A stretch of 26,648 nucleotides of DNA. It comes from Candidatus Methylomirabilota bacterium (lineage in GTDB: Bacteria > Methylomirabilota > Methylomirabilia > Rokubacteriales > CSP1-6). The position numbers and the translations under genes were made by a program. Of the stretch, positions 1,107 through 22,432 are shown piece by piece. Position 1 is the stretch's first letter. Each line of letters opens with the position of its first letter. The DNA lies in assembly GCA_046726415.1 (NCBI GenBank), contig JBKPAK010000234.1:1-26648 (forward strand), written 5' to 3'. The notes beneath the pieces were generated by a model. That model did not search any database, had not been told where the DNA came from, and worked only from the letters and a program-made list of their open reading frames with translations.

Positions 1107-1128
1107 GCCCGGTGACCTCCGCGAACCG

Positions 1129-6423: not shown

Positions 6424-6436
6424 TCCCGGTGACGCG

Positions 6437-6457
6437 ACTATAGCATCAGTGTATACT
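6437..6457. promoter_or_regulatory. Back-to-back divergent -10 elements
   Basis: In the 52-bp gap: minus-strand TG-C-TATAGT (6445-6437) towards the kinase and plus-strand TATACT (6452-6457) towards the glycosyltransferase. Confidence 0.45.
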
Positions 6458-6475
6458 TCCTCCATCCCCGCCCCG

Positions 6476-8337: not shown

Positions 8338-9348
8338 TCAGCGCCTCACGTCGCGCGCCGGCTTGTCCTCACGCAGGCCGAGGAACGTCGGATGGCGCAG
8401 GCGGCGATCCGCGGTCCACTCGGTGAATCCGACTTGGGCCACCAGGTGCGGCTCGAGCCACGTGGCGCCCGGAAACTTTGCGAGATCGGCGAACGGCGAC
8501 GTCGACCGGATGAGCGGCTCGAAGCGCCGGCCCAGATCCGCCAGGGTCGCCGCGGTGAAGCCCGTGCCCACCCCACCCGCATACCGCAGCTCGGCGCCGT
8601 CATAGACCCCGACGAGCAATGCGCCGAAGTGTGCCCGCGAACCCTCGGGGCGGGTGAAGCCACCGACCACGAACTCCTCTTCGTTGCGAAGCTTGATCTT
8701 TTTCCAGGCCGGTGATCGCAGCCCGGCGAGGTACTGGGACTGCGGATCCTTGGCGATGAGGCCTTCGAGCCCCAGTCGCTTGGCCTGGGCGAGCGCGCGC
8801 CGTCCATCGGACCCTAGCCGGCGTGCGACCTTGAGAGCAGGCCCTTCGCGCATTTCCCGCTCGAGCGCCGCGCGGCGTTCGACCAGCGGGCACGCGCGGA
8901 GGTCGTGGCCCCGCGCGTAGAGACAGTCGAAGACCACGAAGACCTCCTCACCGCCCTCCCCGCGCTGCAGGAGCCCGAAGCGGGACACCGCCTCGGCATC
9001 AAAGACGACGGCCTCGCCATCGAGGGCCAGGGTGGGCGCCGGCAGTGTCCGCACGGCCTCCGCGATCCGCGGGAAGCGCTCGGTGCGATCGATCATATTG
9101 CGGGTCATGAGGCTGACGCGCGCGCCCTCCTTGTAGGCGATGAGCCGGATGCCGTCGTACTTCTCCTCATAGATCCAGCCGGGTCGGTGAAACGCGCCCG
9201 CGACGAGCGTGGCGAGCATGGGCCCAACGCGGAAGGGGATGGGAGCTATTTCGTCCTCGAAGGGACGACCCTCGGGGGGCGTGGCCACGCGCCGGACGCG
9301 AGGGCCAGGCTCGCCTCCGTGCAGCCGCCGGGCCCGCTTGGCCTTCAT
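8338..9348 (-). CDS. ligD: ATP-dependent DNA ligase, LigD ligase module only (adenylation + OB domains)
   Basis: PMLATL, WIYEEKYDGIR (KxDG), LDGE, VFDCLY, EGLIAK, W.KIK, VVGGFT...G.R..FGALLVG, VGTGF, LRHPTFLGLREDK. No polymerase or phosphoesterase domain. Confidence 0.9.
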   Translation of the reverse strand: MKAKRARRLHGGEPGPRVRRVATPPEGRPFEDEIAPIPFRVGPMLATLVAGAFHRPGWIYEEKYDGIRLIAYKEGARVSLMTRNMIDRTERFPRIAEAVRTLPAPTLALDGEAVVFDAEAVSRFGLLQRGEGGEEVFVVFDCLYARGHDLRACPLVERRAALEREMREGPALKVARRLGSDGRRALAQAKRLGLEGLIAKDPQSQYLAGLRSPAWKKIKLRNEEEFVVGGFTRPEGSRAHFGALLVGVYDGAELRYAGGVGTGFTAATLADLGRRFEPLIRSTSPFADLAKFPGATWLEPHLVAQVGFTEWTADRRLRHPTFLGLREDKPARDVRR

Positions 9349-9388
9349 GCTCTCTGCCTACGCAGACCTCGACCTTATGTGAACGCGC

Positions 9389-10042
9389 TCAGTCGCTGAA
9401 CGCGAGGTCCAGACGCACCGTGGGAAGGCCAAGCGAGAGTTCGACGGCGGTGAGGCATTCTGGCTCTGGCTCTGGATCGTCGGGACGCAATAGATACGCT
9501 GCCCGCGTGGGGCAGGTCAGGTCCTCGAAGGGCAAATAGAATACCCCGGTGAACGTCCCGCTTCTGAACCAGTGGAACGGCCCACCCTTGGCGCCCTTGG
9601 CGTCCCAGATCCCGGCGATGGACCCCAACGGGATCCCCTTCTTGAGAGCCGGCGAGAGGTCGATGATCCCCCTGAGGAAACCTTCGACGACTATCCATTC
9701 GGGCCCGTCCCCGTCCGGGAGGCTGTCGAGCTGTACCACGATAGAGAAGGTTCCGCGGACAGGGCCCTTCCCGCTCTCCAAGTCGATGTCGTCGGAGGCC
9801 GTGACCACCACATTGCACGGACCGCGAAGAGTCGGCGGGCAGATGGGGGCATCTGACGACATTGTGCCAACGAGCGTCGCCGTAGCCGACCGCGTCCCTC
9901 TCTTCTTCAGGAGCCGTAAACTGGCGGTCTCCGTCACCTCGTAGAGGCTGCCTTGAGGAGCCAGGTCCTGCGCTTGGACAGGAGAGACTAACGCGAGGAC
10001 CAGCCAGGCGAGAAACCAGGCACCGGGGACCTTTCCAGTCAT
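9389..10042 (-). CDS. Secreted hypothetical protein
   Basis: Strong RBS AAGGGAGGAG before MTGKV. Signal peptide (AWFLAWLVLALVSPVQA|QD). The mature part is beta-rich with four Cys. Confidence 0.7.
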   Translation of the reverse strand: MTGKVPGAWFLAWLVLALVSPVQAQDLAPQGSLYEVTETASLRLLKKRGTRSATATLVGTMSSDAPICPPTLRGPCNVVVTASDDIDLESGKGPVRGTFSIVVQLDSLPDGDGPEWIVVEGFLRGIIDLSPALKKGIPLGSIAGIWDAKGAKGGPFHWFRSGTFTGVFYLPFEDLTCPTRAAYLLRPDDPEPEPECLTAVELSLGLPTVRLDLAFSD

Positions 10043-10092
10043 ATCTCCTCCCTTGTGAGAGTGAGACAGCCACGGCGGGGTTCGTCCCCCGG

Positions 10093-11118
10093 TCAACCGG
10101 CCTCTGGTAGGGCTGAACGGGACGAATCGACCAAGGTCGGGCCGCCGGTAGAGCCCCACACGCCCAAGTAGGGGACGGCGTCCCGCTTCCGTTGCTTCCG
10201 AATCTCGTGTTCGAGAATGCTGAAGACGATGATGTCGCTAGAGATCCCGTGATGGATGGCGGCCCCACGAAGGACGCCTTCCTGGACGAATCCGTTGCGC
10301 CGCAAGGCGTTGATGCTGAGCCGGTTGTAGTCGTAGACCTTGGCCTCGATGCGGCGGATGCCGAGCAGGTCTTGCGCGTAGAAGGACAGCATGCGCGAAG
10401 CCGCCACTCCCCACCCGCGGCGCAGCGCCTGGCGGCTAACGATGGCCGCCTCGAGAAATCCGTAGCCCTGTCCGAGGTGGATCCCGAAGAGCCTGACGAA
10501 CCCCAGGGGGACCTCCTGCCCGATGGCGGATTGCAAAATCAGCGTGAGCGAGGCGGGATGGTGCAGCACGCTGGAGGCGAACTCTGGATGGTATGGGCCG
10601 AGGTACCGGCACCGATACAACAGCTCGCTGCCAACCATGATCTTGAGGTTGGGATCGTGCGCCCACTGCTCGAAGAAACTCAGATCCTCCCACCGCACGC
10701 GTCGCAAGGCGAATTCGCCCGTGCGCACCACGGTCACATCGGGGTCCTCGTCTGGTTGTCCCTCGCGCCACAGTTCGGTCAAGCCTGACTCCGGTTCGCG
10801 CGGGCCGATCAGAGGTAGGTCCTCGACGATACCCGTCTCGAGGCTGCCGTGGAGGACGGCGGCACTGGGCAGGATGGAGAGGTGGACGCCCCGCTCCGCC
10901 GCCAGCTGCGCCGCCTGCAGCAGGGTGGCCAACCCGGCCACATCGACGATCTTCACCCCCTCCAGATTGATCTCGATGCGAGGGGTCCGCGCGGCGAGGT
11001 GTTCGCGAAAAGCCCAGGCGAAGCCGGCCGCCGTGCGCAAGGTCAGTTCGTTTCCCCCGGAGAACATCTCCCAACTGGCCGGGCTGGTCGCGCCGTCGGG
11101 CATGGCCAGGAATGCCAT
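10093..11118 (-). CDS. STAS (anti-sigma antagonist-like) domain fused to a RimJ/RimL-type GNAT acetyltransferase
   Basis: ELTLRTA..F...IEINLEGVKIVDVAGLATL is STAS-like. ALRRVRWEDL...RRGWG...LGIRRIEAKVYDYNRLSINALRRNGFVQEGVLR is Acetyltransf_3-like. TGATG coupling to the methyltransferase stop. Confidence 0.82.
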   Translation of the reverse strand: MAFLAMPDGATSPASWEMFSGGNELTLRTAAGFAWAFREHLAARTPRIEINLEGVKIVDVAGLATLLQAAQLAAERGVHLSILPSAAVLHGSLETGIVEDLPLIGPREPESGLTELWREGQPDEDPDVTVVRTGEFALRRVRWEDLSFFEQWAHDPNLKIMVGSELLYRCRYLGPYHPEFASSVLHHPASLTLILQSAIGQEVPLGFVRLFGIHLGQGYGFLEAAIVSRQALRRGWGVAASRMLSFYAQDLLGIRRIEAKVYDYNRLSINALRRNGFVQEGVLRGAAIHHGISSDIIVFSILEHEIRKQRKRDAVPYLGVWGSTGGPTLVDSSRSALPEAG

Positions 11119-11819
11119 CAGACCGCCCGTGTCCATGCCACCAGGCTGATCCCGCCGAGGAACGTTCGCGAGACGTCCAGGACCGCGAAGCCCGCACCCC
11201 TGAGCAGGGCGTGGAATTCCTCCGGGCAGAGATAGCGGCGCTCTCCGCGGCGCAGGGCCTCGAAGGCGGCCGTGGGGATGAGCCAGCGGAGCGCGCGCAG
11301 CCCGTCGCTCAGTCCCGCCTCGCCGGCGACGTCGCGGAACGTGCTCAACACGTGGGGCGGCCTGGCATACGTCAGAAACAGCGCATGCCCGCCTCGAGCC
11401 AGGGCCCGTCGGCACCCCGCCAGGAATCGCCCTGGCTCCGGATGCCAGTACAGCGTGTGCAGACTCACCAGCACATCGTAGCGGCCCGCCTGCGGCACTG
11501 CGGCCTGAGCCACGTCGAGGTGGTGAAAGATGACCTTCCCATCGAGACGGGAGAGCGGCGTCCCGCGCGCGATCTCCACCAGACGCCCCACCCCGTCGAG
11601 CCCGACCACGTCGTAGCCCTCGTGCGCCAGTCGCCGGGCGAGCGTGCCCGTCCCGCATGCCACGTCCAGGATGCGGATCTCGTCCCGCGCGACGGCGGAC
11701 GGCCTGGCCCGATTGATGCGCTCGACGATCTCATCGAGCAGCTGCGTGTATGGCCGAAAGGCGCGCACGACCGCGTCGTAGGCCAGGCCGTAGCCGACGG
11801 CGGCCAGGGAATCCATCAT
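11118..11819 (-). CDS. Class I SAM-dependent methyltransferase
   Basis: ILDVACGTG motif I, VVGLD, YDVLVS.HTLYW, LARGG. Starts 2 bp after the kinase stop. Confidence 0.9.
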   Translation of the reverse strand: MMDSLAAVGYGLAYDAVVRAFRPYTQLLDEIVERINRARPSAVARDEIRILDVACGTGTLARRLAHEGYDVVGLDGVGRLVEIARGTPLSRLDGKVIFHHLDVAQAAVPQAGRYDVLVSLHTLYWHPEPGRFLAGCRRALARGGHALFLTYARPPHVLSTFRDVAGEAGLSDGLRALRWLIPTAAFEALRRGERRYLCPEEFHALLRGAGFAVLDVSRTFLGGISLVAWTRAV

Positions 11820-11821
11820 GG

Positions 11822-14023
11822 TCAGCCCTGGCCCCGGGCTGGCGTGGTGTTCAAGACGTCCTCGGCGGGCCGCGGCGTGGTCCCGTCCGCCTCGCGCCGG
11901 TGCGGGATCTTGACCCGCATGGTGGTGCCCTGCCCCGGCTGACTCTGCACTTCGATGCTGCCTCCGTGCCGGGAGACGATGCTGAGGCTCACGGACAGGC
12001 CGAGGCCCGTCCCCCTTCCCTCACCTTTGGTCGTGAAGAACGGCTCGAAGATCCGCGCGACCTGCGCCTGATCCATCCCGGTCCCGGTATCCGTCACCCT
12101 GACGACGACCATCCCCTCCGCCGGTATCAGTTCCGACTCCACCGTGAGAGTTCCACCTCCCGGCATGGCATCGACCGCGTTGGTGAACAGGTTGATGAAC
12201 ACTTGCGTTAGCTGGTCGCGATCGCCCATGACCAGCGGCAGGCGCGGTCCGAACGCAGTATGCACGGTCACGCCGCCGCTCGCCAGCCGGACCTGCACGA
12301 TGTCCAGCGAGCGCCGGATCAGCTCGTTGGCATCCAGCGGTTCATGCTTCGGCTCCCGCCGGCGCGAGAAGTCAAGGAGATCCCGCACGATCTTTCCCGC
12401 GCGATTCGCCGCGTTGATGATGTTGGTGATCTTGGCGTAGGCGGCCGAATCGGACGGTGTCCGGCGGAGGAGCACGGCGCTGCTGCCCAGGATGACCGTC
12501 AGCGGGTTGTTGATCTCGTGGGCGAGGCTGGCCGCCAGCTCTCCGATGGCCGCCAGCTTGGCCGATTGGGTAAGCTGCTCCTGCGTAGTCTGCAACTCCA
12601 GCATCCGGTCCTTCAGGTCCTGGTACAGCCGCGCGTTCTTGAGCGCGATGGCCATCTGCCCCATGAGCATTTCGAGGATCCTGATGTCGGCGGGAGCGAA
12701 CACCTCCCCTGACAACTTCTCCCCCAGCACGAGTACAGCCGCCAGGTCTCCCTCGAGAAACATGGGAACCAGCAGCGCCACCCGCTCCGCCTCCAGCCGC
12801 TTGACGATGGCGCGGAGGCCAGGGTCGCTGCTGGCCTCGAGCGCCGCCTCGCCGACCACCATCGTCCGGGCCGAACGCCGCAGCCAGAGGGCGAGGGCGG
12901 GGTCCAGGTACCGACTCGTCGGGATCCCCTCGCCGGCCGGCGATACGGCCTCCGCGAAGCGCTCCAGGCTGCCCGCGCCGGGACGGTAGAGGTGAAGGGC
13001 GGCCCGCATCGCGGGAATTCGGGAGACCAGCTCCGAGGTGAGCCTCCGTCCGAGCTCGTCCAGGTCGAGGAGCGATGCCAGCTCCTTACTGAGATCCAGG
13101 AGGGCCTCGCGCACGCTGTGCTGGCGCGCAAACATGAGCCGTTCGAGACCCCGCTCGAGCACGTGCAGGAGCGGAAGCGCCAGGCTGAACCCGATGAGCA
13201 GCGCACTGCCGACGATGACGCTTCGCAGGACCCCTTCGACCGGGACGAGTTGTTCGAGGGCCCACTGCCCGAGCCAGTGCCCGAAGATGAGCACCGGAGC
13301 GAGGGCGATCGAAGCCGAGAGATAGAGCAGCAGCCGCCTGCCCAGGGCCCCCATGTCGAGCAGTCGGTAGCGGACGATGGCCAGGCCAAGCGCCAGCGCC
13401 AGGAGCGAGTTGGTCGGGATGCCCACGGGATACACCTTCTCTAGGCCCGGCAGAATGAAGCGAAGGAAATCGACGGCGCCGCCGAGCAGGCTGACGGTGA
13501 TGCCCACCATGACCAGGAGCATCCGGTGACGCCAAAAGCTCGACGTCTGCGCGCGCCGCGCCCGCACCAGCCGGACCAGTCCCCACACCATGTACAGCTG
13601 GAAATAGACGAGGAATAGCTTGTAGAGCGGTCCTTCGACCGGGACCCATCCCCAGTAGGTCTGCTCCACGCCCCGCATGAGCAGCGGCGTGGCGCACACG
13701 GACAGGAAGAAGACGCACAACACCCCTCCCACGAACAGCGATCGGCGTCGCGTCGGCAGCTCGAGAAAGATGACGATATAGCGGTAGAACAGGACGGGGA
13801 GAGGAATGACGCCGACGTGCACCACGATCTCCCACAGGAATGCCTCGTGGGGCCCGACACTCCACCGCAGCCCGAGCACTCCGAAGTTCCAGACGGCCTG
13901 GGCGGCCGCGAAATACGCGAAGCTGCGATTGAGGGGGCTCCGGCGGTCGGAGGCGAGGGCACTGACAATGAGGAGGAGATTCAGACCCAGGGCGAACAGC
14001 GGGACGAGCTTGTGGACAGTCAT
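11822..14023 (-). CDS. Sensor histidine kinase: N-terminal 7TM-type membrane region, GAF, HisKA, HATPase
   Basis: Multi-TM N-terminus (LNRSF..F....AVWN, AIVRYRLLD, typical of HisKA_7TM). GAF end (LVPM...L.LGEKLSG..F...D...L....QMAIALKNARLY), AHEINNP, QVFINL..NA.DA, FEPFFTTK, GTGLGL. Confidence 0.92.
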   Translation of the reverse strand: MTVHKLVPLFALGLNLLLIVSALASDRRSPLNRSFAYFAAAQAVWNFGVLGLRWSVGPHEAFLWEIVVHVGVIPLPVLFYRYIVIFLELPTRRRSLFVGGVLCVFFLSVCATPLLMRGVEQTYWGWVPVEGPLYKLFLVYFQLYMVWGLVRLVRARRAQTSSFWRHRMLLVMVGITVSLLGGAVDFLRFILPGLEKVYPVGIPTNSLLALALGLAIVRYRLLDMGALGRRLLLYLSASIALAPVLIFGHWLGQWALEQLVPVEGVLRSVIVGSALLIGFSLALPLLHVLERGLERLMFARQHSVREALLDLSKELASLLDLDELGRRLTSELVSRIPAMRAALHLYRPGAGSLERFAEAVSPAGEGIPTSRYLDPALALWLRRSARTMVVGEAALEASSDPGLRAIVKRLEAERVALLVPMFLEGDLAAVLVLGEKLSGEVFAPADIRILEMLMGQMAIALKNARLYQDLKDRMLELQTTQEQLTQSAKLAAIGELAASLAHEINNPLTVILGSSAVLLRRTPSDSAAYAKITNIINAANRAGKIVRDLLDFSRRREPKHEPLDANELIRRSLDIVQVRLASGGVTVHTAFGPRLPLVMGDRDQLTQVFINLFTNAVDAMPGGGTLTVESELIPAEGMVVVRVTDTGTGMDQAQVARIFEPFFTTKGEGRGTGLGLSVSLSIVSRHGGSIEVQSQPGQGTTMRVKIPHRREADGTTPRPAEDVLNTTPARGQG

Positions 14024-14106
14024 GACTGGCGCTCTCGCGCTACCCCAACTGCGCCGAGATTGCTCAGCCTCGCGAGTCCGGCCATGGGCACACGGGTGAC
14101 GTTGGG

Positions 14107-14137
14107 GTAATCGGCCGGCCGGCCCCCGCTCCGGAGG
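14107..14137 (-). promoter_or_regulatory. Candidate sigma28-type promoter of the kinase-MTase-STAS/GNAT operon
   Basis: CCTCCGG-N15-GCCGATTAC. The -10 matches the sigma28 GCCGATAA box, and the layout is identical to 17815-17845. Confidence 0.55.
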
Positions 14138-14195
14138 GGGCTTGGCCTCGCTATATCAAACCCCTGATCATGCCCTTGCCCTCAAGGTATTGATC

Positions 14196-14717
14196 TCAGA
14201 AGCCTGCCCCATACAGGAACCAATACACCATGACCCCGGTCACGGAAACGTACAGCCACACCGGAAGAGTCCACCGCGCGAGTCGTCGATGCCGGGCGAA
14301 CTCGCCGCGCCAGGCGCGATAGATCGTGACGAGGGCAAGCGGGACGATTGCCACGGCCAGCACGATATGGGAGGCAAGCAGAGGAAAATAGACCCAGCGG
14401 ATCCAGCCTTGCCCCGCGAACGGTCGCGATCCAAACCAGTAGTGGTAGGCCACATACGAGGCGAGAAAGACCACTGACGCGCCCAGGGCGGCGAGCATGC
14501 AAGCCCCGTGCGCCCCGCGCTGCCCCCTTCGGATGAACGCGTAGCCGACCATCAAGAGCGTCGCGCTCAGGCCGTTGAGAAACGCGTTGAACCCCGGCAG
14601 GGCCGATACTTCGGCGGCAGCACTCACCGGGGACCGTCCGAGGAGGAGCACGCCAACCACCCCCACCACCGCGACCGAGATGCAGGCAATCGTCGGGAGA
14701 GCCACGCGATCCTGCAT
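14196..14717 (-). CDS. DUF420 (YozB-like) membrane protein
   Basis: LP.FNA.LN..S, H...M, FL.SY..YH, F.G.G.IR.VYF..L.SHI.LA, HRR.ARWT.P.WLYVSVTGV.VY. Start at MQDRV (TACGAT 6 nt upstream). Confidence 0.9.
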   Translation of the reverse strand: MQDRVALPTIACISVAVVGVVGVLLLGRSPVSAAAEVSALPGFNAFLNGLSATLLMVGYAFIRRGQRGAHGACMLAALGASVVFLASYVAYHYWFGSRPFAGQGWIRWVYFPLLASHIVLAVAIVPLALVTIYRAWRGEFARHRRLARWTLPVWLYVSVTGVMVYWFLYGAGF

Positions 14718-14859
14718 GGCGCGATCGTACTCCAATCTACGCCATCCGGCACTCAGCTCGGGCCTGCCGAGACGGGCACGGGGTCCCCGTATCGGGACCA
14801 GATTGGCACACCCACGTGCGCCCTCCCGCCGCTACCGTGCGGAGCGGAGGATCCCAGAC

Positions 14860-15471
14860 ATGGCGATCGACTGGCCCCAGGACCGGATACTCGTGGTGGA
14901 TGACGATGCGGCCGCCCGCCGAACCCTCCAGGAGCTTCTGGGACAGGCTGACTACGCGTCGGTGGGCGTGGCCAGCGTGGCCGAGGCTCGGCGAGTCGCT
15001 GAAGGTGAAGAGCCTACCCTAGCCCTCCTCGACCTCGTTCTCCCCGACGGCGACGGCCTCCGCCTCTTGCGCGATCTACGCGCCTCGTGGCCGGCCATGC
15101 CGGCCCTCATCGTCACCACCTGCGTCGAGACGCGGAGCATCGTCGCCGCCATGCGAGCGGGCGCCTTCGACTACCTGACGAAGCCAGTGGATTGCGAGGT
15201 CCTGCTCTCAGCTTGTCGCGCGGCGCTGGCCCGCCGACCCTCCCGCTCGTGTGGTTCGGCCCGCTCGCACACCATCGTCAGGGAGATTGGCACGACCACA
15301 CCCTGGCCTCCGTCGTCCGCGTATCTGCGCCCGCTGCGCGACATCGAGGACGCGTACATCGATCACGTGCTGGCCGCCACCCGGGGCAATCGCACCCGCG
15401 CCGCCCGGATTCTCGGGGTCGCCCGCGAAACCTTGCGCACGCGCATGCTCACGCGCCGGGCCGTGTCGTGA
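14860..15471 (+). CDS. Response regulator REC + Fis-type HTH, lacking AAA+ domain
   Basis: ILVVDDD, LLDLVLPDGDG, GAFDYLTKP, a short linker, then LRDIEDAYIDHVL..TRGNRTRAARILGVARETL. GGAGG upstream. Confidence 0.85.
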   Translation: MAIDWPQDRILVVDDDAAARRTLQELLGQADYASVGVASVAEARRVAEGEEPTLALLDLVLPDGDGLRLLRDLRASWPAMPALIVTTCVETRSIVAAMRAGAFDYLTKPVDCEVLLSACRAALARRPSRSCGSARSHTIVREIGTTTPWPPSSAYLRPLRDIEDAYIDHVLAATRGNRTRAARILGVARETLRTRMLTRRAVS

Positions 15472-16349
15472 TGTCGGCGACCGCCGCCCGGACCACGCCG
15501 CCCGTACTCTCATCGACCTCGAGGGAAGCCACCATGAGGGCCACCGCGTTCCACTGGCCGTTCGAAACCGCTGGTAAGACGATCCCTGCGCAGGCGGTGG
15601 AAGCTGCGTGGCGAGAATACCGGACCGTGCGCTCGGAGGCCGCGCGCGAGACGCTGCTGCAGCGCTACATCCACCTCGTTCGCTACATGGCCAGCCGCCT
15701 GGCCCGAACGTTCCCCCCCTCGGTGGACCCCGACGATCTCGTCTCCGCAGGTGTCCTCGGCTTCCTTCGCGCCCTCGACGGCTATGACCCCACCGTCGGC
15801 ACGGACTTCAGCGTGTATGCCCTGACCCGTATCCGGGGGGCCATGGTCGACTTCGTCCGCACGATCGATCCCCTCGGCCGCGTCACCCGACGCCGGCTCC
15901 GCGACGCGGCGCGCGTGCTCGCCGGGCTCGAGCAGGAACTGGGACATCAGCCTTCGCAGGCGCAGACCGCTCACAAACTCGGGGTGACGATCGACGCGTA
16001 CCACGAGTTGCTGACGCAGGGGAGCGTGGCCAACGCCATGTCGCTCGAACGCCTGGAGAGCGACAGCGATGAGAACGGCAACGCCTTGACCCGGGCGCGC
16101 ATCCCGGACGCCACCACCAAGGGCTCCCTCACGAGTCTGGTCGACCGCGAAAGCGCCGCCCGCGTCGCCACCATGGTGAGCCAGCTCTCGAGCACCCACC
16201 AACTCGTCCTGCACCTCCACTACGTGGAGGAATTGAACTTCCGCGAGATCGCGATGGTCATGGACATCTCGGAGTCGCGCACCACCCAGCTTCACTCAGC
16301 CGCGATCACCGCGCTCCGGAGTCGGACGGCGGCGGCCACGGTGGTGTGA
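15471..16349 (+). CDS. fliA: FliA/WhiG-family RNA polymerase sigma factor (sigma28)
   Basis: LVRYMA.RL, VDPDDLVSAG.LG, F..YA..RIRGAMVD, LEQELG..P, L.Y.EELNFREIA.VM.ISESR..QLHS.AI..LR. TGATG coupling to the upstream regulator; alternative start 15534. Confidence 0.9.
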   Translation: MSATAARTTPPVLSSTSREATMRATAFHWPFETAGKTIPAQAVEAAWREYRTVRSEAARETLLQRYIHLVRYMASRLARTFPPSVDPDDLVSAGVLGFLRALDGYDPTVGTDFSVYALTRIRGAMVDFVRTIDPLGRVTRRRLRDAARVLAGLEQELGHQPSQAQTAHKLGVTIDAYHELLTQGSVANAMSLERLESDSDENGNALTRARIPDATTKGSLTSLVDRESAARVATMVSQLSSTHQLVLHLHYVEELNFREIAMVMDISESRTTQLHSAAITALRSRTAAATVV

Positions 16350-16356
16350 GCGCGGG

Positions 16357-17718
16357 CTACACCGACATGTTGTAGGACTTGAGCTTGTTGTAGAGGGTCT
16401 TGGGATCCACGTCGAGGATCTTGGCCGCCCGCGCTCGGTTGCCGCCGGTGTGCTGGAGCACCTTGAGAATGTGACGGCGCTCCACTTCGTCGAGCGAGGG
16501 AAGCTTCCCCTCGATCTCGGGTGAGGTGACGGGCAGATGGAGGGCCACGTCGCCGGGGGTGACCTCGTCGCCGGAGGACATTACCGTCAGCCGTTCGACG
16601 ACATTGCGCAGCTCGCGGATGTTGCCGGGCCACGGGTAGCGCGTGAGCACTTGCATCGCTTCCGCGGTGAACTTCAGCGGCCGTTGGCCAGGTCCGGTCA
16701 GTTGGGCGCCGAAGAACTCGACGAGGAGGGCGATGTCTTCCACCCGCTCCCGCAGGGGCGGCACCTCGATCACCACCACGCTCAGTCGATAGTAGAGATC
16801 GTGCCGGAACTGGCCGCTGGCCACCGCACGAGCCAGATCCTTATTGGTGACCGCGATGACCCGCACGTCGACGTGCAGGGTGCGATCGCCGCCCAGACGG
16901 CGGATCTCGCCGCTGTCGAGCGCGCGCAGCAGCTTCGCCTGCATGGCGCTCGACATCTCGGCCACCTCGTCGAGAAAGAGGCTCCCTTCGTGGGCGAGCT
17001 CCAGGAGCCCATGGCGCCGCGCGGCGGCACCCGTGAAGGCGCCCCGCTCATGACCAAACAGCTCGGATTCCAGCAACTCGTCGGGAAGAGCCGCGCAGTT
17101 GATGACCAGGAAGGGCAGCTCGCGACGCGCGCTGCTGGCATGCACCGCCCGGGCGGCCAACTCCTTGCCGCTCCCGCTCTCGCCGAGAATGAGCACGTGG
17201 GATTCGGATTGGCCGGCCCGTTGAAGCAGGTCGCGCAGCCGATCCATGGCGCGGCACTGGCCCTGCATGACCGGCTCGAATTCGTGCTGGGACACCGCCC
17301 GCCGGAGGAGCCGGTTCTCCCGGCGCAGCCGGCGATGCTCGGCGGCCCGGCCCACCACCTGGGCCAGCTCGGCAAAGCGGAAGGGCTTGAGGATGTAATC
17401 GAAGGCCTTGAGTTTGAGGGCCTCGATGGCCGTCTCGACCTCAGCGTGACCGGTGACGATGATGACTTCGCTGTCCTGGCCTTCAGCCCGCATCGTCTGG
17501 AGCACTTCGATGCCGTTCTTCTTGGGAATGCGAAGATCGAGGAGCACGAGGTCGAACTCCTCCTGCGCCAAGGTGGCCAGGGCGGTCTCCCCATCCGCCA
17601 CCGACACGACGAGATAGCCCAGACGGGTCAGAGCAGCGACGAGGGTATCGCGGAGGTCGGGATCATCCTCGACGACGAGCAGTCGAACGACGTTTGCCGT
17701 GCTACCGTTGGACTTCAG
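16357..17718 (-). CDS. Sigma54-dependent response regulator (REC-AAA+-Fis HTH), probable CTG start
   Basis: GESGSGKE, GAFTGA, WPGNIRELRN, HTH. The frame continues upstream of the ORF-track start (17607) as LKSNGSTANVVRLLVVEDDPDLRDTL with no ATG/GTG/TTG. GGAGG (17731-17727) sits 8 nt before CTG at 17718. Confidence 0.88.
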   Translation of the reverse strand: MKSNGSTANVVRLLVVEDDPDLRDTLVAALTRLGYLVVSVADGETALATLAQEEFDLVLLDLRIPKKNGIEVLQTMRAEGQDSEVIIVTGHAEVETAIEALKLKAFDYILKPFRFAELAQVVGRAAEHRRLRRENRLLRRAVSQHEFEPVMQGQCRAMDRLRDLLQRAGQSESHVLILGESGSGKELAARAVHASSARRELPFLVINCAALPDELLESELFGHERGAFTGAAARRHGLLELAHEGSLFLDEVAEMSSAMQAKLLRALDSGEIRRLGGDRTLHVDVRVIAVTNKDLARAVASGQFRHDLYYRLSVVVIEVPPLRERVEDIALLVEFFGAQLTGPGQRPLKFTAEAMQVLTRYPWPGNIRELRNVVERLTVMSSGDEVTPGDVALHLPVTSPEIEGKLPSLDEVERRHILKVLQHTGGNRARAAKILDVDPKTLYNKLKSYNMSV

Positions 17719-17769
17719 GCGGGGCGCCTCCGTCCGGGAACTCGTCGCTCTGGCAACACTGGACCTAAA

Positions 17770-17799
17770 AGCCTACTCGGTGGTGGCCGCCGAAGTCAA
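17770..17799 (-). promoter_or_regulatory. Sigma70-type promoter of the sigma54 activator gene
   Basis: TTGACT-N18-TAGGCT upstream of the RBS/CTG. Confidence 0.5.
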
Positions 17800-17814
17800 C
17801 GCCAGGGGCGGCGG

Positions 17815-17845
17815 CCTCCGGGCCGCCTCATCCGGTGCCGATCAC
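17815..17845 (+). promoter_or_regulatory. Candidate sigma28-type promoter of the flgM-like gene
   Basis: CCTCCGG-N15-GCCGATCAC ending 26 bp before the ATG; twin of 14107-14137. Confidence 0.55.
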
Positions 17846-17871
17846 TCCATCGGGGTGCGAGGGGGAGACCG

Positions 17872-18096
17872 ATGGGCGATCGGCACCGGGCGAACAACCG
17901 AGGCGTAGGTCCGCTGTCACACATCGATATCGCGCGCGCCGTGCTGGGTCATTGCGGAGCCGCCGAGGACGCCCCGTCCGCCGTGAGGGCGCGGCTCGAT
18001 CGGGTCAAGGCGGTGCGGAGGGGGCTGGCCGACGGTTCGCTAGTGCCGGACCCGGCGCGCATTGCCCGAGCGTTGCTCGCGCGCGGCGTGCTCTAG
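17872..18096 (+). CDS. flgM: FlgM-like anti-sigma28 factor (74 aa)
   Basis: RBS GAGGGGGAG. C-terminus RLDRVKAVRRGLADGSLVPDPARIARALL fits the FlgM sigma-binding pattern R..kV..lk..I..G.y.vd...IA..ll. A sigma28 gene is nearby. Confidence 0.65.
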   Translation: MGDRHRANNRGVGPLSHIDIARAVLGHCGAAEDAPSAVRARLDRVKAVRRGLADGSLVPDPARIARALLARGVL

Positions 18097-18393
18097 TCCC
18101 TTCTTGACCCGCGCCCGCTCGGCCGCCGCTGGGAACCCAGGGGGCGCTGTGGCCTGTCCTTCGCGTCCCCGCCGCAACTCTTCCAGAACGGCGCGGTCAA
18201 CCGCCACGACGTCACCGTGAGCCACGCGCAGGAGCCAGCGCAAACCACACACGCAGTCGAAGACGAGGGTCGACTGGAAGCTGCCCATGCTGCCCGCCGA
18301 TAGGACGTGGATCCGGTGCAGCTTCAGTCCATGCCGCTCCGTGCAAGTCTTGAAGCGGGCGTGCTGCTGGACCTCCGTCACCACCCGCGCCAT
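18040..18393 (-). CDS. Hypothetical protein with possible metal site (C-x3-H...C-x-C)
   Basis: ATG directly abuts the upstream TAA; third gene of a coupled operon. No family recognised. Confidence 0.5.
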   Translation of the reverse strand: MARVVTEVQQHARFKTCTERHGLKLHRIHVLSAGSMGSFQSTLVFDCVCGLRWLLRVAHGDVVAVDRAVLEELRRGREGQATAPPGFPAAAERARVKKGLEHAAREQRSGNARRVRH

Positions 18394-18861
18394 TTAGGAA
18401 GACCCCAGGGCTCGGCGCAGGCTTCCCTCGGACGGACAGAGGCGAATCGAGGACTGCGGGCTGGCGAATGGCCGACCGCACTGCGAGCATGGTCTCACCC
18501 ACCAGGCGCGCGGGTGCACGGTATGGCTCACGAACAGGTAGATGGCCAGCGGGTGGGCGTTGCGCACGACCCGGCACAGAGCGTAGAAATCCAAACCGTG
18601 GCCGTTGTTGTGTAGTGTGGTGACGTCTTCCTGCTGGGCAGGGGTGAGGGCGCGATACCGAGGGGCATTCAGATCCTTGTAGACCGGTACGCCGAGGCGG
18701 GCGAGCCGCGCCAAGGTCGTCAAGACCCGCTTGCGACCGCAGCCCAGAATGGCGGCCAGGTCGTTCACGGAGCAACTGCGTCGCAGAAAGATGACGGCGG
18801 CGATGAAGGCCGGATCGACTTTTTCGCGGCCGGGGCGGCACGGAGAAAGGGTTGCGCTCAT
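18394..18861 (-). CDS. Hypothetical DNA-binding protein: N-terminal HTH and C-terminal Zn-ribbon-like motif
   Basis: SVNDLAAILGCGRKRVLTTLARL is HTH-like; RPCSQCGRPF...RLCP. ATGA overlap with the upstream gene. Confidence 0.6.
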   Translation of the reverse strand: MSATLSPCRPGREKVDPAFIAAVIFLRRSCSVNDLAAILGCGRKRVLTTLARLARLGVPVYKDLNAPRYRALTPAQQEDVTTLHNNGHGLDFYALCRVVRNAHPLAIYLFVSHTVHPRAWWVRPCSQCGRPFASPQSSIRLCPSEGSLRRALGSS

Positions 18862-19622
18862 GATCGGGCCTCCGGATGACCGGTTAGACTGAGCATCTCG
18901 GCGAACAGCGACTGATAGCGATCGATAGACTCGTCGCTGAGCGGCGACGCCCCCGGAGGCAGGATCGCCGCCAGGGTGGCGAAGTCGGGAATCGCCACGG
19001 GAGGAAGCGCCCTCGCGAGGAGGTCGAGGCTGTCGTTGGACAGATCGCCGCGAAGCGTCCGAAGTGGTCCGTGAGCTTCCAGCTGTCCTCGACTCCTTGC
19101 GCGCTCCTCCGCGGCCAGAAGCAACAGCGCTGCGCGATTGAGGTTGGCGACGCGGTCCAGGATGCGCTTGGCCCCATCGGTCCAGTGCCAATGGTCCCGC
19201 AAGCCGTACGTGTCCCGCACCAGAGAGCTCAGCGCGCTCGCCATCCGTGGCGCAGTTCCCGAAATCAAGGCAAGCTGAAGGTCACGGTAGCGATCACGCG
19301 CAAGGGCACGTGCTTGCCGCGGGCTGACTGCGCCCTCGCGCCACGCGCCAGATGGTCCGAGACGAGACGGCACGAGGGTGCCGAGCAGTGTGGGCGCGGC
19401 CACGAGCGTCGCGAGCGAGAGAGGGGCTCCGTGGCCGACCTGGGACAGCAGAGCTTCGGGAAGAGGACTCGCGGGCCCGTAGAGTAACTGGACGGCGGTC
19501 GCCGCTGCCGAGGCGGATGGCAGCCAGAGCAATTCATCCACCAAACTCAGAACGGCGTAGTTGAAGGTGACCCTGAGGGTGTCCGATCGCCCATCTGTTG
19601 GCTGGTTTGCCAGTACCTTCAT
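18858..19622 (-). CDS. Hypothetical protein (helical, no recognised family)
   Basis: 254-aa ORF, first of a coupled trio, directly behind a sigma54 promoter. Confidence 0.6.
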   Translation of the reverse strand: MKVLANQPTDGRSDTLRVTFNYAVLSLVDELLWLPSASAAATAVQLLYGPASPLPEALLSQVGHGAPLSLATLVAAPTLLGTLVPSRLGPSGAWREGAVSPRQARALARDRYRDLQLALISGTAPRMASALSSLVRDTYGLRDHWHWTDGAKRILDRVANLNRAALLLLAAEERARSRGQLEAHGPLRTLRGDLSNDSLDLLARALPPVAIPDFATLAAILPPGASPLSDESIDRYQSLFAEMLSLTGHPEARS

Positions 19623-19642
19623 CGCGACGGTAGCATGGCGTC

Positions 19643-19658
19643 AGCAAGACACATTCCA
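19643..19658 (-). promoter_or_regulatory. Sigma54 -24/-12 promoter
   Basis: TGGAAT-GTGTC-TTGCT with exact GG-N10-GC spacing. Confidence 0.65.
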
Positions 19659-19709
19659 CGACAAACTGCCCCAATTCGGCGAAGAACTGGACGAATCCGA
19701 GCGGGCGGG

Positions 19710-19746
19710 CAGGAAACTTTCCATGGGCCGCACCAGGATTTTTTCC
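19710..19746. promoter_or_regulatory. Tandem enhancer (UAS)-like boxes
   Basis: CAGGAAACTTTCC (19710-19722) and CAGGATTTTTTCC (19734-19746) are dyad-like, 24 bp apart, about 80-115 bp upstream of the predicted sigma54 start. Confidence 0.55.
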
Positions 19747-19891
19747 CGACACTTTCGACCTCGCGGATGCGGTCGCCCGTCCAATCGCGCGCCGTGTCCA
19801 GGCTGGGCCGACGGTGGTATGCTCGCGCCACGCGCAAGACGCCGAAGGTCCATCAGCAAGGGCTGACCAGGGACGCGAAAGGAGTTACTCG

Positions 19892-20524
19892 ATGTCGGTG
19901 AGGCTGTTCGTCGGAGGTCTCTCTTTTTCCACCTCCACGGAGCGTCTTCGCGAGACGTTCGCCCGATACGGTGGCGTGGACTCAGCCGCCGTGATGACGG
20001 ACCGAGAAACGGGGCGATCGCGTGGGTTCGGATTCGTCGAGATGGCGTCGTCGGAGGAAGCCGAGCAGGCCATTGGCGCCCTGAACGGATCGAGTCTCGA
20101 CGGCCGCACAATTCGCGTCGACAAAGCGACCCCGCGCGGAGCGGCGCCGTCGCGAAGCGGCGCTTTCGAGAGGCGACCGAGTGGCACAGCGCCCGGAGGC
20201 GGAGCGCCCCGACGAATGCCCTCCGCGCCCGGTGCCGGCCCGCGCGGTCCGAGCGATCGCCCAGGCGGATGGACGCCCCGGCCCGGGGGGCCAGGCGGAC
20301 GAGGCCCGGGCGGCCCGGGATCGGGCGGGCGGGGTCCAGGTGAACCGTGGAACTTGAATGCGGGCGATCAGCGGCGTGGCAGCGGGCGCCGCCGCGACGG
20401 GGAAGGAAAGCGCAGCGGCAGCGAGGGGCGCCGAAGCAGTGGCCTTCGTCGCGGCGCCGGTCCCCAGCGCCGCAGCAATGATCGCGGACGCCGCAGCCTC
20501 GGAGACGACTACCGCACCTTCTGA
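19892..20524 (+). CDS. RRM-domain RNA-binding protein with long Gly/Arg/Pro-rich tail
   Basis: RNP2 LFVGGL, RNP1 RGFGFVEM, DRETGRS. RBS AAAGGAG. Extended -10 TG-G-TATGCT at 19815-19823. Confidence 0.93.
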   Translation: MSVRLFVGGLSFSTSTERLRETFARYGGVDSAAVMTDRETGRSRGFGFVEMASSEEAEQAIGALNGSSLDGRTIRVDKATPRGAAPSRSGAFERRPSGTAPGGGAPRRMPSAPGAGPRGPSDRPGGWTPRPGGPGGRGPGGPGSGGRGPGEPWNLNAGDQRRGSGRRRDGEGKRSGSEGRRSSGLRRGAGPQRRSNDRGRRSLGDDYRTF

Positions 20525-20593: not shown

Positions 20594-22432
20594 GTGCAGA
20601 TTCGTTTCTGGGGCACCCGCGGCTCCATTCCCACGCCAGACCGGCGCACCAACTATTTTGGTGGCAACACCAGTTGCGTGGAGATTCGCGGGGCCGACGA
20701 CCGTCTGATCATCCTCGACTGCGGGACGGGAGCCCGGCCGCTCGGCCTCGACATCTTGGGTCGCGGCGAGAAGCTGCAGCCGATGCACATCCTGATCACC
20801 CACACACACTGGGATCATATCCAGGGCTTCCCCTTCTTCCTTCCCGCCTATGTGCCGGGGGCGCGTCTGACCTTCTACGGAACCCGGGGTCTGGAGCGCA
20901 CGCTCGAGGCGTCGATCTCGGGGCAAATGCAGCACACGTACTTTCCGGTTCAGCTGGGCGAGCTGCGCGCTCAGATCGACTTCATCGAGTTGGCCGAGCA
21001 GCGCTTCACGCTCGGTCCCCTTCGGGTGACCACGCAGTTCATGAACCACACGGCGGCCACCATTGGCTACCGCTTCGAGTGTGGAGGCTTGAAGTTTACC
21101 TATTGCACTGACCACGAACCGTTCTGGTGGCCCTCTCCCGCGCCGCGTCCGGGCGACGGCAACGCCGCGCGGCATCCGGGGGAGGATCGCCATATCGCCT
21201 TCATCGAGGGCGCAGATCTGCTCATCCACGATGCGCAGTACAGCGACCACGAGTATTCGGCCAAGCGCGGTTGGGGGCACAGCCCCATCGAATACGTCGT
21301 CGAGATCGCCGCCCGCGCCGGCGTGAAACAGCTCATCCTGTTTCATCATGATCCTCTTCACTCGGACGACTGGGTCCGTCGCCACACCGAAGCGGCCCGC
21401 CGCCAGGCGCGGCGACTGCGGTCCCCGCTCGAGATTCTCGCCGCCTCCGAAGGCCTGGAAATCAACCTCGACGAGCGGCACAGTCCCGGGCGCCCAGGGG
21501 CCAACGGCAGCGCTCGGCCGGCCCTTTCCTCGGTCGGAGGGCGGATCTTGGTGGCGGGCTCGTCAGCTGAGACGGTGAAGGAGCTTCGCGACATCCTCGC
21601 CGGAGACGGCTACGACATTGCGATGGCCGGCGACCGACATCTGGGGAGCGCGGTGACGCGGCGGCGACCACATCTGCTCATCCTGGTTGGCGCGCGAAGC
21701 GAAGCCGCGCTCCTGGAGACCGTACAGCAAGCCCGGGCCGAAGCGTGGGGGGCCTCGCTCCCCGTGCTCATCCTCGCCGGCTCGGAAGGTCCCGGGCCCG
21801 CCGGACGCCTCGTCGACGCCCTCACCGATGTCCTGTCACGCCCTCTGAATCCGGCGTTCCTTCGCCCTCGGGTGCGCGCGTGGTTGAGCCGTGCCGGCGT
21901 CGCCGTCCCCGCCCGCGGGGACTTGCACCGCCAGCGGATCGTCAGCGCATCGCTGGCCGCCGGGCGTGGCTTCTTGACCGGCTTGCCGCTCGCCGAGCGC
22001 GCGACCCTGCTGACCAGTGCGAAGACCGCGCGCTTCCGCCTCGGCGAAATTCTCTTCAAGCAGGGCGAGCCCGCCGGTGGTCTCTACTTCCTGCGCTCGG
22101 GGCGCGTGCGGCTCACTGTGCGCCGCAACGGACGAGAGGTCGTCGTGGCCACGGCCAGGGTAGGCGACACGGTCGGAGAGCTGGCCGCCGTCGATGGCGG
22201 ACCGCGCACGGCCACGGCACGGGCCATCGAAGCGACAACCGCCGACTACATTTCGCGCGAGGCCTTCGCGGCCAGCCTGGCCGCCGCGCCCGCGGCGGCC
22301 GCCCGCCTGATCCGCCGGATGGCGCAGCGGCTCCGCCAGACGGATCCATACGTGGGAGAATTGACGAGCGTCCGCGCCGCGGCCAGCGACGCGCCGACCC
22401 GCGGGAAGCCGGACAGCCCGCGGCGACGCTGA
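20594..22432 (+). CDS. MBL-fold metallo-hydrolase fused to a degenerate receiver and a cNMP-binding domain
   Basis: FWGTRGSIP, GGNTSC, ILDCGTG, THTHWDHIQG (HxHxDH), HDAQY, GWGHS, LFHHDP. A REC-like segment lacks the acidic pocket. cNMP domain: ILFKQGEP...LYFLRSGRV...GELA..DGGPRTATA. Confidence 0.9.
   Translation: MQIRFWGTRGSIPTPDRRTNYFGGNTSCVEIRGADDRLIILDCGTGARPLGLDILGRGEKLQPMHILITHTHWDHIQGFPFFLPAYVPGARLTFYGTRGLERTLEASISGQMQHTYFPVQLGELRAQIDFIELAEQRFTLGPLRVTTQFMNHTAATIGYRFECGGLKFTYCTDHEPFWWPSPAPRPGDGNAARHPGEDRHIAFIEGADLLIHDAQYSDHEYSAKRGWGHSPIEYVVEIAARAGVKQLILFHHDPLHSDDWVRRHTEAARRQARRLRSPLEILAASEGLEINLDERHSPGRPGANGSARPALSSVGGRILVAGSSAETVKELRDILAGDGYDIAMAGDRHLGSAVTRRRPHLLILVGARSEAALLETVQQARAEAWGASLPVLILAGSEGPGPAGRLVDALTDVLSRPLNPAFLRPRVRAWLSRAGVAVPARGDLHRQRIVSASLAAGRGFLTGLPLAERATLLTSAKTARFRLGEILFKQGEPAGGLYFLRSGRVRLTVRRNGREVVVATARVGDTVGELAAVDGGPRTATARAIEATTADYISREAFAASLAAAPAAAARLIRRMAQRLRQTDPYVGELTSVRAAASDAPTRGKPDSPRRR

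Follow-up and report, generated by a model that had tools for sequence, protein, structure and literature searches.

The window analysed here is a 26,648-nucleotide stretch of contig JBKPAK010000234.1, which is contig C234 of a 7.6-Mb Rokubacteria metagenome-assembled genome (MAG; 352 contigs, 98% completeness, 4.66% contamination). It carries a compact group of flagellar-type regulatory genes, encoding a sigma-28 factor, a FlgM-like anti-sigma factor, a sigma-54 activator and a truncated activator relative, in an organism in which no flagellar genes were detected. Genes were placed by combining the open reading frame (ORF) listing with third-position G+C (the G+C content of the window is ~68%) and family scans. 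Domains were called by a Pfam scan of the window's 34 ORFs, to which the curated NCBIfam (TIGR) cut-offs were added, and comparisons were made within a phylum sample of 151 genomes and a family sample of 121 genomes (compared loci and genomes are given below as L and G numbers, respectively). The first-pass annotation of this DNA regarded positions 10093–19746 as a self-contained sigma-54/sigma-28-FlgM cascade and as a candidate for an undescribed developmental or stress switch; we found all of the parts that it listed. We consider it probable that a polar-type flagellar regulatory tier has outlived the flagellum in this Rokubacteria lineage and was compacted into a cassette of ~4.8 kb (14860–19622), all seven ORFs of which are open.

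The sigma-28 gene (15534–16349, plus strand) encodes a 271-aa member of the FliA/WhiG family, with the start chosen after homologue P0001. The protein contains the Pfam Sigma70_r2, r3 and r4 domains, scores 195 bits against TIGR02479 (cut-off 189.6) and is the only protein of the genome to exceed this cut-off. The FlgM-like gene (17872–18096, plus strand) encodes 74 aa, of which the C-terminal ~36 residues alone are conserved. When a profile of nine orthologues was compared with four canonical FlgMs by hhalign, 36 C-terminal columns were aligned with 95% probability (E 4e-8), and five of the nine orthologues match the Pfam FlgM family at E ≤0.1, the best of them at 1.6e-5. The best match of the FlgM-family profile in the genome is the window ORF, which is also the sole genome match of the canonical FlgM of the flagellated relative G080 (52% identity over 40 aa). 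As regards a second canonical fliA or flgM, the sole FliA-level sigma of the genome and its best FlgM-family match are those of the window.

Orthologous flgM-like ORFs were seen in all compact loci inspected. As called, their products measure 55–92 aa and have an unconserved N-terminus, and some must be shorter than called, as a promoter element lies inside the longest ORF; canonical FlgMs of flagellated relatives, in contrast, measure 102–110 aa and have a conserved N-terminus. The N-terminal part of FlgM serves its export through the flagellar apparatus. A conserved N-terminus of this export type is absent from the FlgM-like proteins, and the genome searches revealed no export gate. We modelled the complex of the sigma factor and the FlgM-like protein, which scored 0.92 (runs 0.92, 0.92 and 0.78), the highest value among three controls being 0.00; of 80 solved complexes, 58 attain the mark for this score, as do 2 of 110 mismatched pairs. 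At least 85% of contacts are shared between runs, the pLDDT (predicted local distance difference test) of the partner is at least 62, and the modelled interface places FlgM-like residues 41–74 on residues 204–265 of the sigma factor (region 4). The binding of the two proteins, which the first-pass annotation had presumed, is supported by the complex model, whose score may nevertheless stem from likeness to solved sigma-28/FlgM structures.

The sigma-54 activator (16357–17733, minus strand) is an NtrC-type protein of REC-AAA+-HTH_8 architecture (Pfam Sigma54_activat, 221.9 bits), which retains GAFTGA in the alignment and is 87–91% identical in L041 and L039. The second regulator, a 203-aa protein composed of REC and a Fis-type HTH_8 domain (Pfam; 14860–15471, plus strand), was said to be coupled to the sigma gene; it is indeed its neighbor on the same strand, 62 nt upstream, yet the two genes do not overlap. 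Its counterparts in relatives, further referred to as REC-x-Fis, are proteins of 417–433 aa made up of REC, a partial Sigma54_activat domain, AAA_lid and HTH_8, and the alignment indicates that they keep Walker A and B and have the GAFTGA loop deleted. Judged from this alignment, the window REC-Fis is a GAFTGA-less activator stripped of the whole AAA+ core; it falls outside the ActR/PrrA family (70 bits, cut-off 250). Upstream of its gene, at 14775–14810 (plus strand), lies GTATCGGGACCAGATTGGCA, which is identical to L039 3920–3945 and does not match the clade's promoter form for either sigma-54 or sigma-28.

On the opposite strand to flgM, the cassette contains three genes, U254 (18858–19622), U155 (18394–18861) and U117 (18040–18393), named after the lengths of their products in aa. 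U254 is the first gene of the operon, and the three are translationally coupled through ATGA and TAAATG junctions. The operon is headed by a sigma-54 promoter, TGGAATGTGTCTTGCT (19658–19643, minus strand), located 20 nt upstream of U254 and showing GG-N10-GC spacing; the sigma-54 consensus is GG-N10-GC with a TGGCAC/TTGC-like core. We found TGGAAY-N5-CTTGCT, with GG-N10-GC kept, before U254 in all four orthologous loci (window, L039, L041 and L074), and a sigma-54 promoter also heads this operon in G154, G012, G075 and G147. In the sister clade, such a promoter stands before U117 in 4/4 loci and, in the same four loci, immediately ahead of the sigma gene as well. As candidate enhancer sites we regard two boxes of palindrome-like sequence, CGGGAAAAAATCCTGG and TGGAAAGTTTCC (19712–19748, minus strand); they are conserved in the window, L039 and L041, not in L074, and GGGAA(A/T/G)TTTTCC palindromes occupy a like position in four other genomes. 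CGGGACCAGATTGGCA, the best candidate for a sigma-54 promoter of the window before REC-Fis or sigma, was rejected, as it agrees at 8 of 12 positions and is unlike the form of the clade.

As far as the sources name an organism, the U155 and U117 families are restricted to Rokubacteria: U155 is a conserved protein found in 76 clusters, all unnamed or hypothetical, and U117 in 35, all hypothetical. U254, which is 49–54% identical in L039 and L041, has no Pfam, NCBIfam or PADLOC match; the same is true for U117, for which the Atlas search returned only a Rokubacteria cluster. The AF2 model of U117 has a pLDDT of 63, and its Foldseek search of the PDB gave no match at E ≤0.001. For U155 (AF2 pLDDT 77), only weak local rows of winged-helix/helix-turn-helix (HTH) folds were obtained (E >0.1), and sequence searches yielded HTH hints only (E 0.12–0.28); the protein is possibly a winged helix with a Cys-rich tail. 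The U117 and flgM-like genes are arranged tail-to-tail. The overlap between them amounts to 57 nt in the window, L039 and L041; in eight sister-clade loci the stops lie ~9 nt apart, and in L074 ~80 nt. A crude scan found no intrinsic terminators between flgM and U117; the region's total of three was no more than in shuffles.

We recognized sigma-28-type motifs before two transcription units, namely TCCGGGCCGCCTCATCCGGTGCCGATCA (17817–17844, plus strand), 27 nt upstream of the flgM-like gene, and TCCGGAGCGGGGGCCGGCCGGCCGATTA (14135–14108, minus strand), 84 nt upstream of the start of a sensor kinase gene located on the other side of the sigma gene. Both share TCCGG-N15-GCCGATNA, and the sigma-28 -10 consensus is of the GCCGATAA type. 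In the entire 7.6-Mb genome, both strands included, the strict motif has 12 hits, two of which flank the sigma gene; other strict hits (C69, C150/C261, C190 and others) were discarded, as they lie inside genes or have no downstream gene. The form TCCGR-N15-GCCGATNA precedes the flgM-like gene in all eight compact loci (one has TACGG at -35), so that the -10 element and its spacing to TCCGR are conserved there as a sequence feature; a canonical TAAA -35 element was also considered and is not conserved at this place. The same form of the motif is found ahead of the canonical flgM of flagellated G080, and in the sister clade a sigma-28-type motif stands ahead of the first gene of the kinase/REC-x-Fis/sigma operon, which encodes the kinase, in 4/4 loci. 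At the kinase position of L039 we read, by eye, TTCGA-N15-CCCGATCA. In G132, a genome of the same genus that has no sigma gene, the motif is missing ahead of the kinase and unrelated sequence is found instead. The -35 element differs between the two sigma clades described below: TCAAG-N15-GCCGAT in clade A, as read in four promoters (L115, L117, L118 and L120), in contrast to TCCGR-N15-GCCGAT in clade B (L116 and the window). In L042 (6867, minus strand) and L049 (9320, minus strand), TCCGR-N15-GCCGATGA is directed, on the strand opposite to fliA, at the DNA immediately following this gene, in which no convincing gene could be called.

The kinase operon codes for a 733-aa 7TM-GAF-HisKA-HATPase sensor histidine kinase (11822–14023, minus strand; Pfam HisKA_7TM, GAF_2, HisKA and HATPase_c), which is 80% identical in L039 and 74% in L041, with a ratio of nonsynonymous to synonymous substitution rates (dN/dS) of 0.14–0.18. 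It is followed by a 233-aa S-adenosylmethionine-dependent methyltransferase (11118–11819, minus strand; Pfam Methyltransf_23/25/11; 77% identical in L039) and, as the last gene, by a 341-aa fusion of STAS with a RimJ/RimL-like GNAT acetyltransferase (10093–11118, minus strand; Pfam STAS_2, 38.6 bits with a cut-off of 29.2, and Acetyltransf_1). The stop of the methyltransferase gene and the start of the STAS-GNAT gene overlap as TGATG. Since the flgM-like gene and the kinase operon share a sigma-28-type promoter motif, feedback through the sigma factor's own regulon, as had been suggested for this locus, is plausible.

The organism is without detectable flagellar genes. Neither flagellar nor che genes came up among the window's 34 ORFs in the Pfam scan, profile searches of the genome gave no Flagellin_N, FHIPEP or Flg_bb_rod, and tblastn with FliL, FliM, FliP, FliR, FlhB, FlhA and FlhF of the relative L048 gave no hits. 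With the low-complexity filter on, the FlhF search misses even the signal recognition particle GTPases of the cell; with the filter off, the query matches only two GTPase genes at 31–34% identity, so that no FlhF is found in the genome. Nor was the signalling domain of methyl-accepting chemotaxis proteins (MCP) found in the genome, the MCP of a relative matching only HAMP-like stretches. PilB is present according to homology searches, and rpoN occurs in two places. As the MAG is 98% complete, these searches bear out, on the scale of the genome, that flagellar structural genes are absent. The absence recurs in G073, which harbors the same module and in which, at 95% completeness, no rod, FliP or FlhA match was obtained.

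The origin of the cassette can be traced through its flagellated relatives. In L042, L047 and L048, sigmas 64–66% identical to that of the window are encoded downstream of flagellar export genes (Pfam), in the order fliL-fliM-fliP-fliR-flhB-flhA-flhF in L048, flhB-flhA-flhF in L042, and with fliR and flhA in L047. Altogether, flhA-flhF precede sigmas of 52–66% identity in L031, L042, L047 and L048, and the 52% identical sigma of G080 lies ~2 kb from flhA on contig C57. A 71–74% identical copy of the activator is found 2–4 kb downstream of sigma, on the opposite strand, in L042, L047 and L048, where Cache/MCP genes adjoin it. In the phylum sample, a FliA-level sigma was detected in 22 genomes and FlhA in 12; the two coincide in 11, and a further 11 have the sigma but no FlhA, among which G078 and G150 are ambiguous because they are 83–86% complete and carry FlhF/FlhA-like matches beside the sigma gene.

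The sigma tree, built from 59 distinct rows after dropping identical ones, separates two clades: clade A, whose members are 36–39% identical to the window's sigma, and clade B, which contains it. The upstream context of the 81 sigma rows is REC-x-Fis in 38, flhA/flhF in 12 and other genes in 10, the contig being too short in 21. REC-linked sigmas nest among flagellum-linked ones, and the tree clade of the window's sigma comprises 18 rows, 17 of them REC-linked (support 97/93). The window's sigma nests among flagellum-linked fliA genes. As the sigma and the activator are orthologous to flagellar fliA and to its sigma-54 activator neighbor, the cassette does not represent a separate invention; the proposed undescribed type of switch gives way to an orthologous flagellar fliA/activator pair that outlived the flagellum, for which Legionella provides a precedent. 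Clade-B sigmas occur in 6 of the 121 sampled family genomes and U155 in 8 of them, five of the eight being among those six. Elsewhere in the sample, L020, L021 and L022 (G034, G060 and G074) as well as L017 and L018 (G078 and G109) encode a clade-A FliA-type sigma among kinase/sigma-54 activator pairs. No FlhA was found in these genomes, three of which share a genus belonging to a family with FlhA in 0 of 12 genomes; these loci may constitute another orphan sigma-28 circuit.

Among the 80 loci compared, REC-x-Fis, sigma, activator and U117 occur together in 19, in which the flgM-like gene was detected by tblastn or, where examined, by ORF inspection. The whole block is retained in L039 and L041, and the anticipated synteny in relatives is thus confirmed. 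G073 carries the compact module of REC-x-Fis, sigma, a 71% identical activator, FlgM-like protein and U117. REC-x-Fis is located directly upstream of sigma in G147 and ~6 kb upstream in G075; in both genomes FlhA and FliP were not found, and rod-motif matches number one and three, respectively. In G075, sigma and activator are separated by genes for an HDOD protein, a PilB-like ATPase and a kinase. Just upstream of the G075 sigma gene, an open frame at G075:C124:16677–16724 contains a partial rod motif (Flg_bb_rod positions 16–31), which is probably the remnant of a deleted flagellar gene and may explain the Flg_bb_rod and sigma 'fusions' among homologues P0052, P0054 and P0082.

In comparisons with L039 and L041, the dN/dS of every cassette and kinase-operon gene lies between 0.07 and 0.39, at dS of 0.45–1.5. 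We obtained 0.18/0.20 for sigma, 0.07/0.09 for the activator, 0.25/0.17 for REC-Fis, 0.39/0.32 for the FlgM C-terminus, 0.19/0.18 for U117 and 0.30 for U254, as compared with 0.18/0.20 for the housekeeping gene product MurB. These ratios indicate that the cassette is under purifying selection. Population data came from DNA contigs of four soil runs (at least 95% identity) that cover parts of the locus: run X1 covers every bin, and X4 and X5 also bridge the activator start. One soil run has a 3-nt deletion in the flgM N-terminus, which, owing to its length, keeps the frame.

Taken together, these data make it likely that four regulators remain from the flagellar tier, i.e., sigma-28, a shortened FlgM, the NtrC-type activator and the cut-down activator consisting of REC and HTH. 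In the circuit that we infer, a sensor kinase, here the neighboring 7TM-GAF kinase, would phosphorylate one or both receivers. The activator, together with sigma-54, would then switch on U254-U155-U117, transcribed head-on towards flgM. The C-terminal helix of the FlgM-like protein is predicted to hold sigma-28 through region 4. Once free, sigma-28 would read TCCGR-N15-GCCGATNA before flgM, producing negative feedback, and before the kinase-methyltransferase-STAS/GNAT operon, producing positive feedback. Because there is no export apparatus, the cell would have to rid itself of FlgM in another way, namely through proteolysis, a binding partner or reduced synthesis. The visible outputs of such a circuit would be local, namely flgM, the sensor-kinase operon and, via sigma-54, the three-gene operon.

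A number of observations weigh against this interpretation. The FlgM-like protein scores below both curated cut-offs (Pfam FlgM, PF04316, 21.1 vs. 25 bits; TIGR03824, 21.6 vs. 40.75), as compared with 42–66 bits for the canonical FlgMs of flagellated relatives, and the complex model represents likeness and not proof, since sigma-28/FlgM complexes have already been solved. The codon of the activator aligned with the ATG of L039 is ACG (17733–17731), and at 17607–17772 (minus strand) GTG 17607 is the first of the usual start codons (ATG, GTG, TTG) that the activator frame offers after the upstream stop; a start there would drop the first part of the receiver, whose first strand and acidic pair are encoded upstream of it. 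The ACG position is unchanged in three bridging soil runs, among the table rows listed. The whole AAA+ core is gone from REC-Fis in both the window and L039. In the window, L039, L041 and L074, the sigma gene has no sigma-54 promoter immediately ahead of it; thus, the postulated step from sigma-54 to sigma-28 applies to the sister clade only, as the window has no such promoter before sigma or REC-Fis. In G154, G012, G075 and G147, U254-U155-U117 is found on other contigs, unlinked to the sigma gene; one of these genomes, G012, gave no match to a FliA-type sigma or to FlhA in the sampled searches. Across the genome, TCCGR-N15-GCCGAT shows no enrichment (37 hits at spacing 15 vs. 27–46 at spacings 9–22, with 1–5 hits per spacing upstream of genes), and the genome motif search revealed no convincing sigma-28 target outside the window.

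The cassette can also be lost. G132 (95% complete, 20 contigs) is collinear with the window on both flanks, the first formed by DUF72, STAS-GNAT, methyltransferase, kinase and DUF420 and the second by RRM, MBL-cNMP and MurB, yet it has 566 bp where the window has 14860–19622 and lacks the cassette. The gap retains the sigma-54 promoter TGGAACATCTCTTGCT, from which we conclude that the cassette was deleted there. G163, a second genome of the genus (72% complete), gave no cassette match. Both cases argue that the cassette is dispensable, and the overall distribution fits a cassette that selection preserves in certain lineages and that others have deleted.

The losses raise the question of whether the cassette is a decaying remnant, i.e., non-functional flagellar debris heading for deletion, in which the promoter motifs are merely inherited. 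The ACG in place of an activator ATG, the missing AAA+ core, the deletion of the entire block in G132, the small number of sampled family genomes with a clade-B sigma and the lack of a regulon beyond the locus would all suit such a state, as would a 1-nt deletion at 17721, seen in the same soil run as the flgM deletion, just before CTG 17718 and downstream of the ACG codon. Decay is hard to reconcile, however, with seven open ORFs, with dN/dS values that fall in the same range as that of MurB in comparisons with two relatives, with the in-frame nature of the flgM indel and with the retention of promoter motifs between clades in spite of a sigma identity of only 57%. Moreover, the short form of REC-Fis is common to the window and L039 at 65% identity, which implies that it is old and maintained. 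We therefore regard decay as unlikely and retain the survival of a regulatory tier as the better explanation.

As to how FlgM might be disposed of, U117, which is presumably driven by the activator and sigma-54 and in every case is tail-to-tail with flgM, could inactivate it either as a binding partner or by head-on antisense transcription, thereby taking over the job of the hook-basal body. We hold this to be quite improbable; if true, the checkpoint between classes II and III would have been recreated in a cell that has no flagellum.

The first-pass annotation favored release of sigma-28 by partner switching, with the STAS-GNAT protein acting like HsbA, i.e., binding FlgM and freeing sigma-28, and with the 7TM kinase feeding both receivers. 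In Pseudomonas aeruginosa, non-phosphorylated HsbA binds FlgM and frees FliA, as stated in the available part of PMC6482189. A STAS domain encoded in an operon with a sigma-28-type promoter would provide positive feedback, and the genome offers no export route for FlgM. Yet the STAS-GNAT protein fails the anti-sigma-antagonist family (TIGR00377, 16.6 vs. 53.45 bits), the Pfam scan found no PP2C phosphatase or anti-sigma kinase domain in the window, and sister-clade modules possess a FlgM-like protein with no STAS gene nearby. Comparison with solved STAS proteins gave no sequence match, only spurious phosphotriesterase rows. At what we take to be the phospho-serine position of the SpoIIAA-type motif, STAS-GNAT seems to have Val/Ala. 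Finally, G132 keeps the kinase-methyltransferase-STAS/GNAT operon with neither sigma nor FlgM, which implies that the operon has another role. STAS partner switching is thus without support and, in our judgment, very unlikely, and phosphotransfer from the 7TM kinase to both receivers would be a conjecture of the same scheme.

That the organism is in fact flagellated and its flagellar genes were left out of the MAG bin is hardly credible: the assembly has 352 contigs and 4.66% contamination, and some Rokubacteria do possess flagellar genes (as in our sampled genomes and in the available part of PMC5712423), yet ten different flagellar queries were empty in a 98% complete genome, the export-operon place upstream of fliA is filled by other genes on the same contig, both flanks are syntenic with the 20-contig G132, in which FlhA has no match, and G073 combines the same module with the same absence. 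On balance, what stands of the initial interpretation is the lack of a flagellum, the synteny, the modelled sigma-FlgM binding and the plausible feedback; its novelty, the STAS switch and the step from sigma-54 to sigma-28 within the window do not.

The surroundings of the cassette and of the kinase operon are of mixed character. Between the two lies a gene for a DUF420 membrane protein (14196–14717, minus strand; Pfam DUF420, 150 bits), a flanking gene kept in G132 and not shown to belong to the circuit. The downstream flank comprises an RRM-type RNA-binding protein with a long Gly/Arg/Pro-rich tail (19892–20524, plus strand), a fusion of a metallo-beta-lactamase (MBL) fold with a cyclic-nucleotide (cNMP)-binding domain (20594–22432, plus strand) and MurB, in this order; the genes for the first two are kept in G132 beside the deletion. 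The end of an RtcB RNA ligase gene is found at 26283–26648 (minus strand). On the other side, a second pair of a histidine kinase and a REC-AAA+-HTH sigma-54 activator occupies 3744–6705 (minus strand), where the listed ORFs overlap and the starts are uncertain; it is enclosed by GT4 glycosyltransferase genes (2566–3747 and 6314–7558). This part of the window also encodes LexA (471–1133, minus strand), a DUF72 protein (7555–8265, plus strand) and an ATP-dependent DNA ligase with LigD-type ligase domains (8338–9348, minus strand). The ORFs at 9375–10268 (minus strand) and 9549–9944 (plus strand) are without a family match, the 131-aa plus-strand ORF having the higher third-position G+C (0.82).

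Rokubacteria vary in flagellar gene content, as reported in PMC5712423, the available part of which does not mention sigma factors, and within the literature searched no paper joins Rokubacteria or Methylomirabil with FliA. Flagellar regulators that outlast the flagellum have a known example in Legionella, and the general phenomenon is not new. What the locus adds is an independent natural case, from an uncultured soil phylum, of a sigma-54/sigma-28/FlgM tier surviving flagellum loss. The relatives form a comparison series, from flagellated, through loss of export genes with remnants, to the compact cassette and its deletion, which could show how an export-based checkpoint is rewired after loss of the exporter and to what use a freed sigma-28 circuit is put. 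The locus also defines a clade-specific form of the sigma-28 promoter (TCCGR -35), a shortened FlgM and a Rokubacteria-only three-gene operon dependent on sigma-54. The organism is uncultured and the wiring, including the direction of phosphotransfer, promoter use and the removal of FlgM, is deduced from sequence.

The polar flagellar hierarchy of Pseudomonas and Vibrio runs from FleQ/FlrA through FleSR/FlrBC, acting with sigma-54, to FliA/FlgM. The order flhA-flhF-fleN-fliA is given for polar flagella in the available part of PMC6424431. The flagellated relatives of our organism resemble this arrangement in having flhA-flhF, the sigma gene and a nearby NtrC-type activator, and the sister clade in having a sigma-54 promoter directly before sigma. 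The window differs in two respects: it is devoid of structural genes, so that there is no hook-basal-body checkpoint, and its sigma-54 promoter would drive genes without a family match and not fliA.

Sigma-28 factors in non-flagellar programmes are another point of reference. The chlamydial sigma-28 is a member of the family engaged in such a programme, and Streptomyces WhiG is described as paired with the anti-sigma factor RsiG in the available part of PMC12871210. The likeness lies in the use of a sigma-28 family member outside motility. In contrast to WhiG/RsiG, the anti-sigma factor here is FlgM-like and no link to cyclic di-GMP was seen; in contrast to both WhiG and the chlamydial factor, flagellum loss was recent enough here for flagellated relatives with orthologues to survive. 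With the HsbA-FlgM system (PMC6482189, available part) the locus shares a STAS protein encoded near FlgM and FliA and a conceivable export-free release, yet an HsbR-type kinase/phosphatase is absent here, STAS is fused to GNAT, and the STAS operon persists in a relative devoid of sigma and FlgM.

The closest parallel is found in Legionella. According to the available part of PMC5655016, non-flagellated Legionella retain fliA and flgM, alongside which fleQ, fleN or fleR/fleS are kept in some species; species with orphan FliA/FlgM are L. oakridgensis, L. longbeachae, L. israelensis and L. londiniensis, and the FlgM of L. oakridgensis is functional, sigma-28-dependent and thought to be degraded. 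Our case differs in that it comes from another phylum and is known from sequence alone, in that one compact cassette unites a sigma-54 activator, a REC-HTH remnant and a three-gene operon driven by sigma-54, and in that FlgM is cut to 55–92 aa and the -35 element is TCCGR. In both, the structural regulon was lost and fliA, flgM and, in Legionella in some species, sigma-54-linked regulators were kept; as far as the available part of that source goes, flgM is sigma-28-dependent there, and here it is preceded by a sigma-28-type motif. FlgM cannot be exported in either system, so that another way of removal is needed, for which degradation has been proposed in Legionella. As in Legionella, the structural genes are absent here, and fliA and flgM have been kept and maintained.

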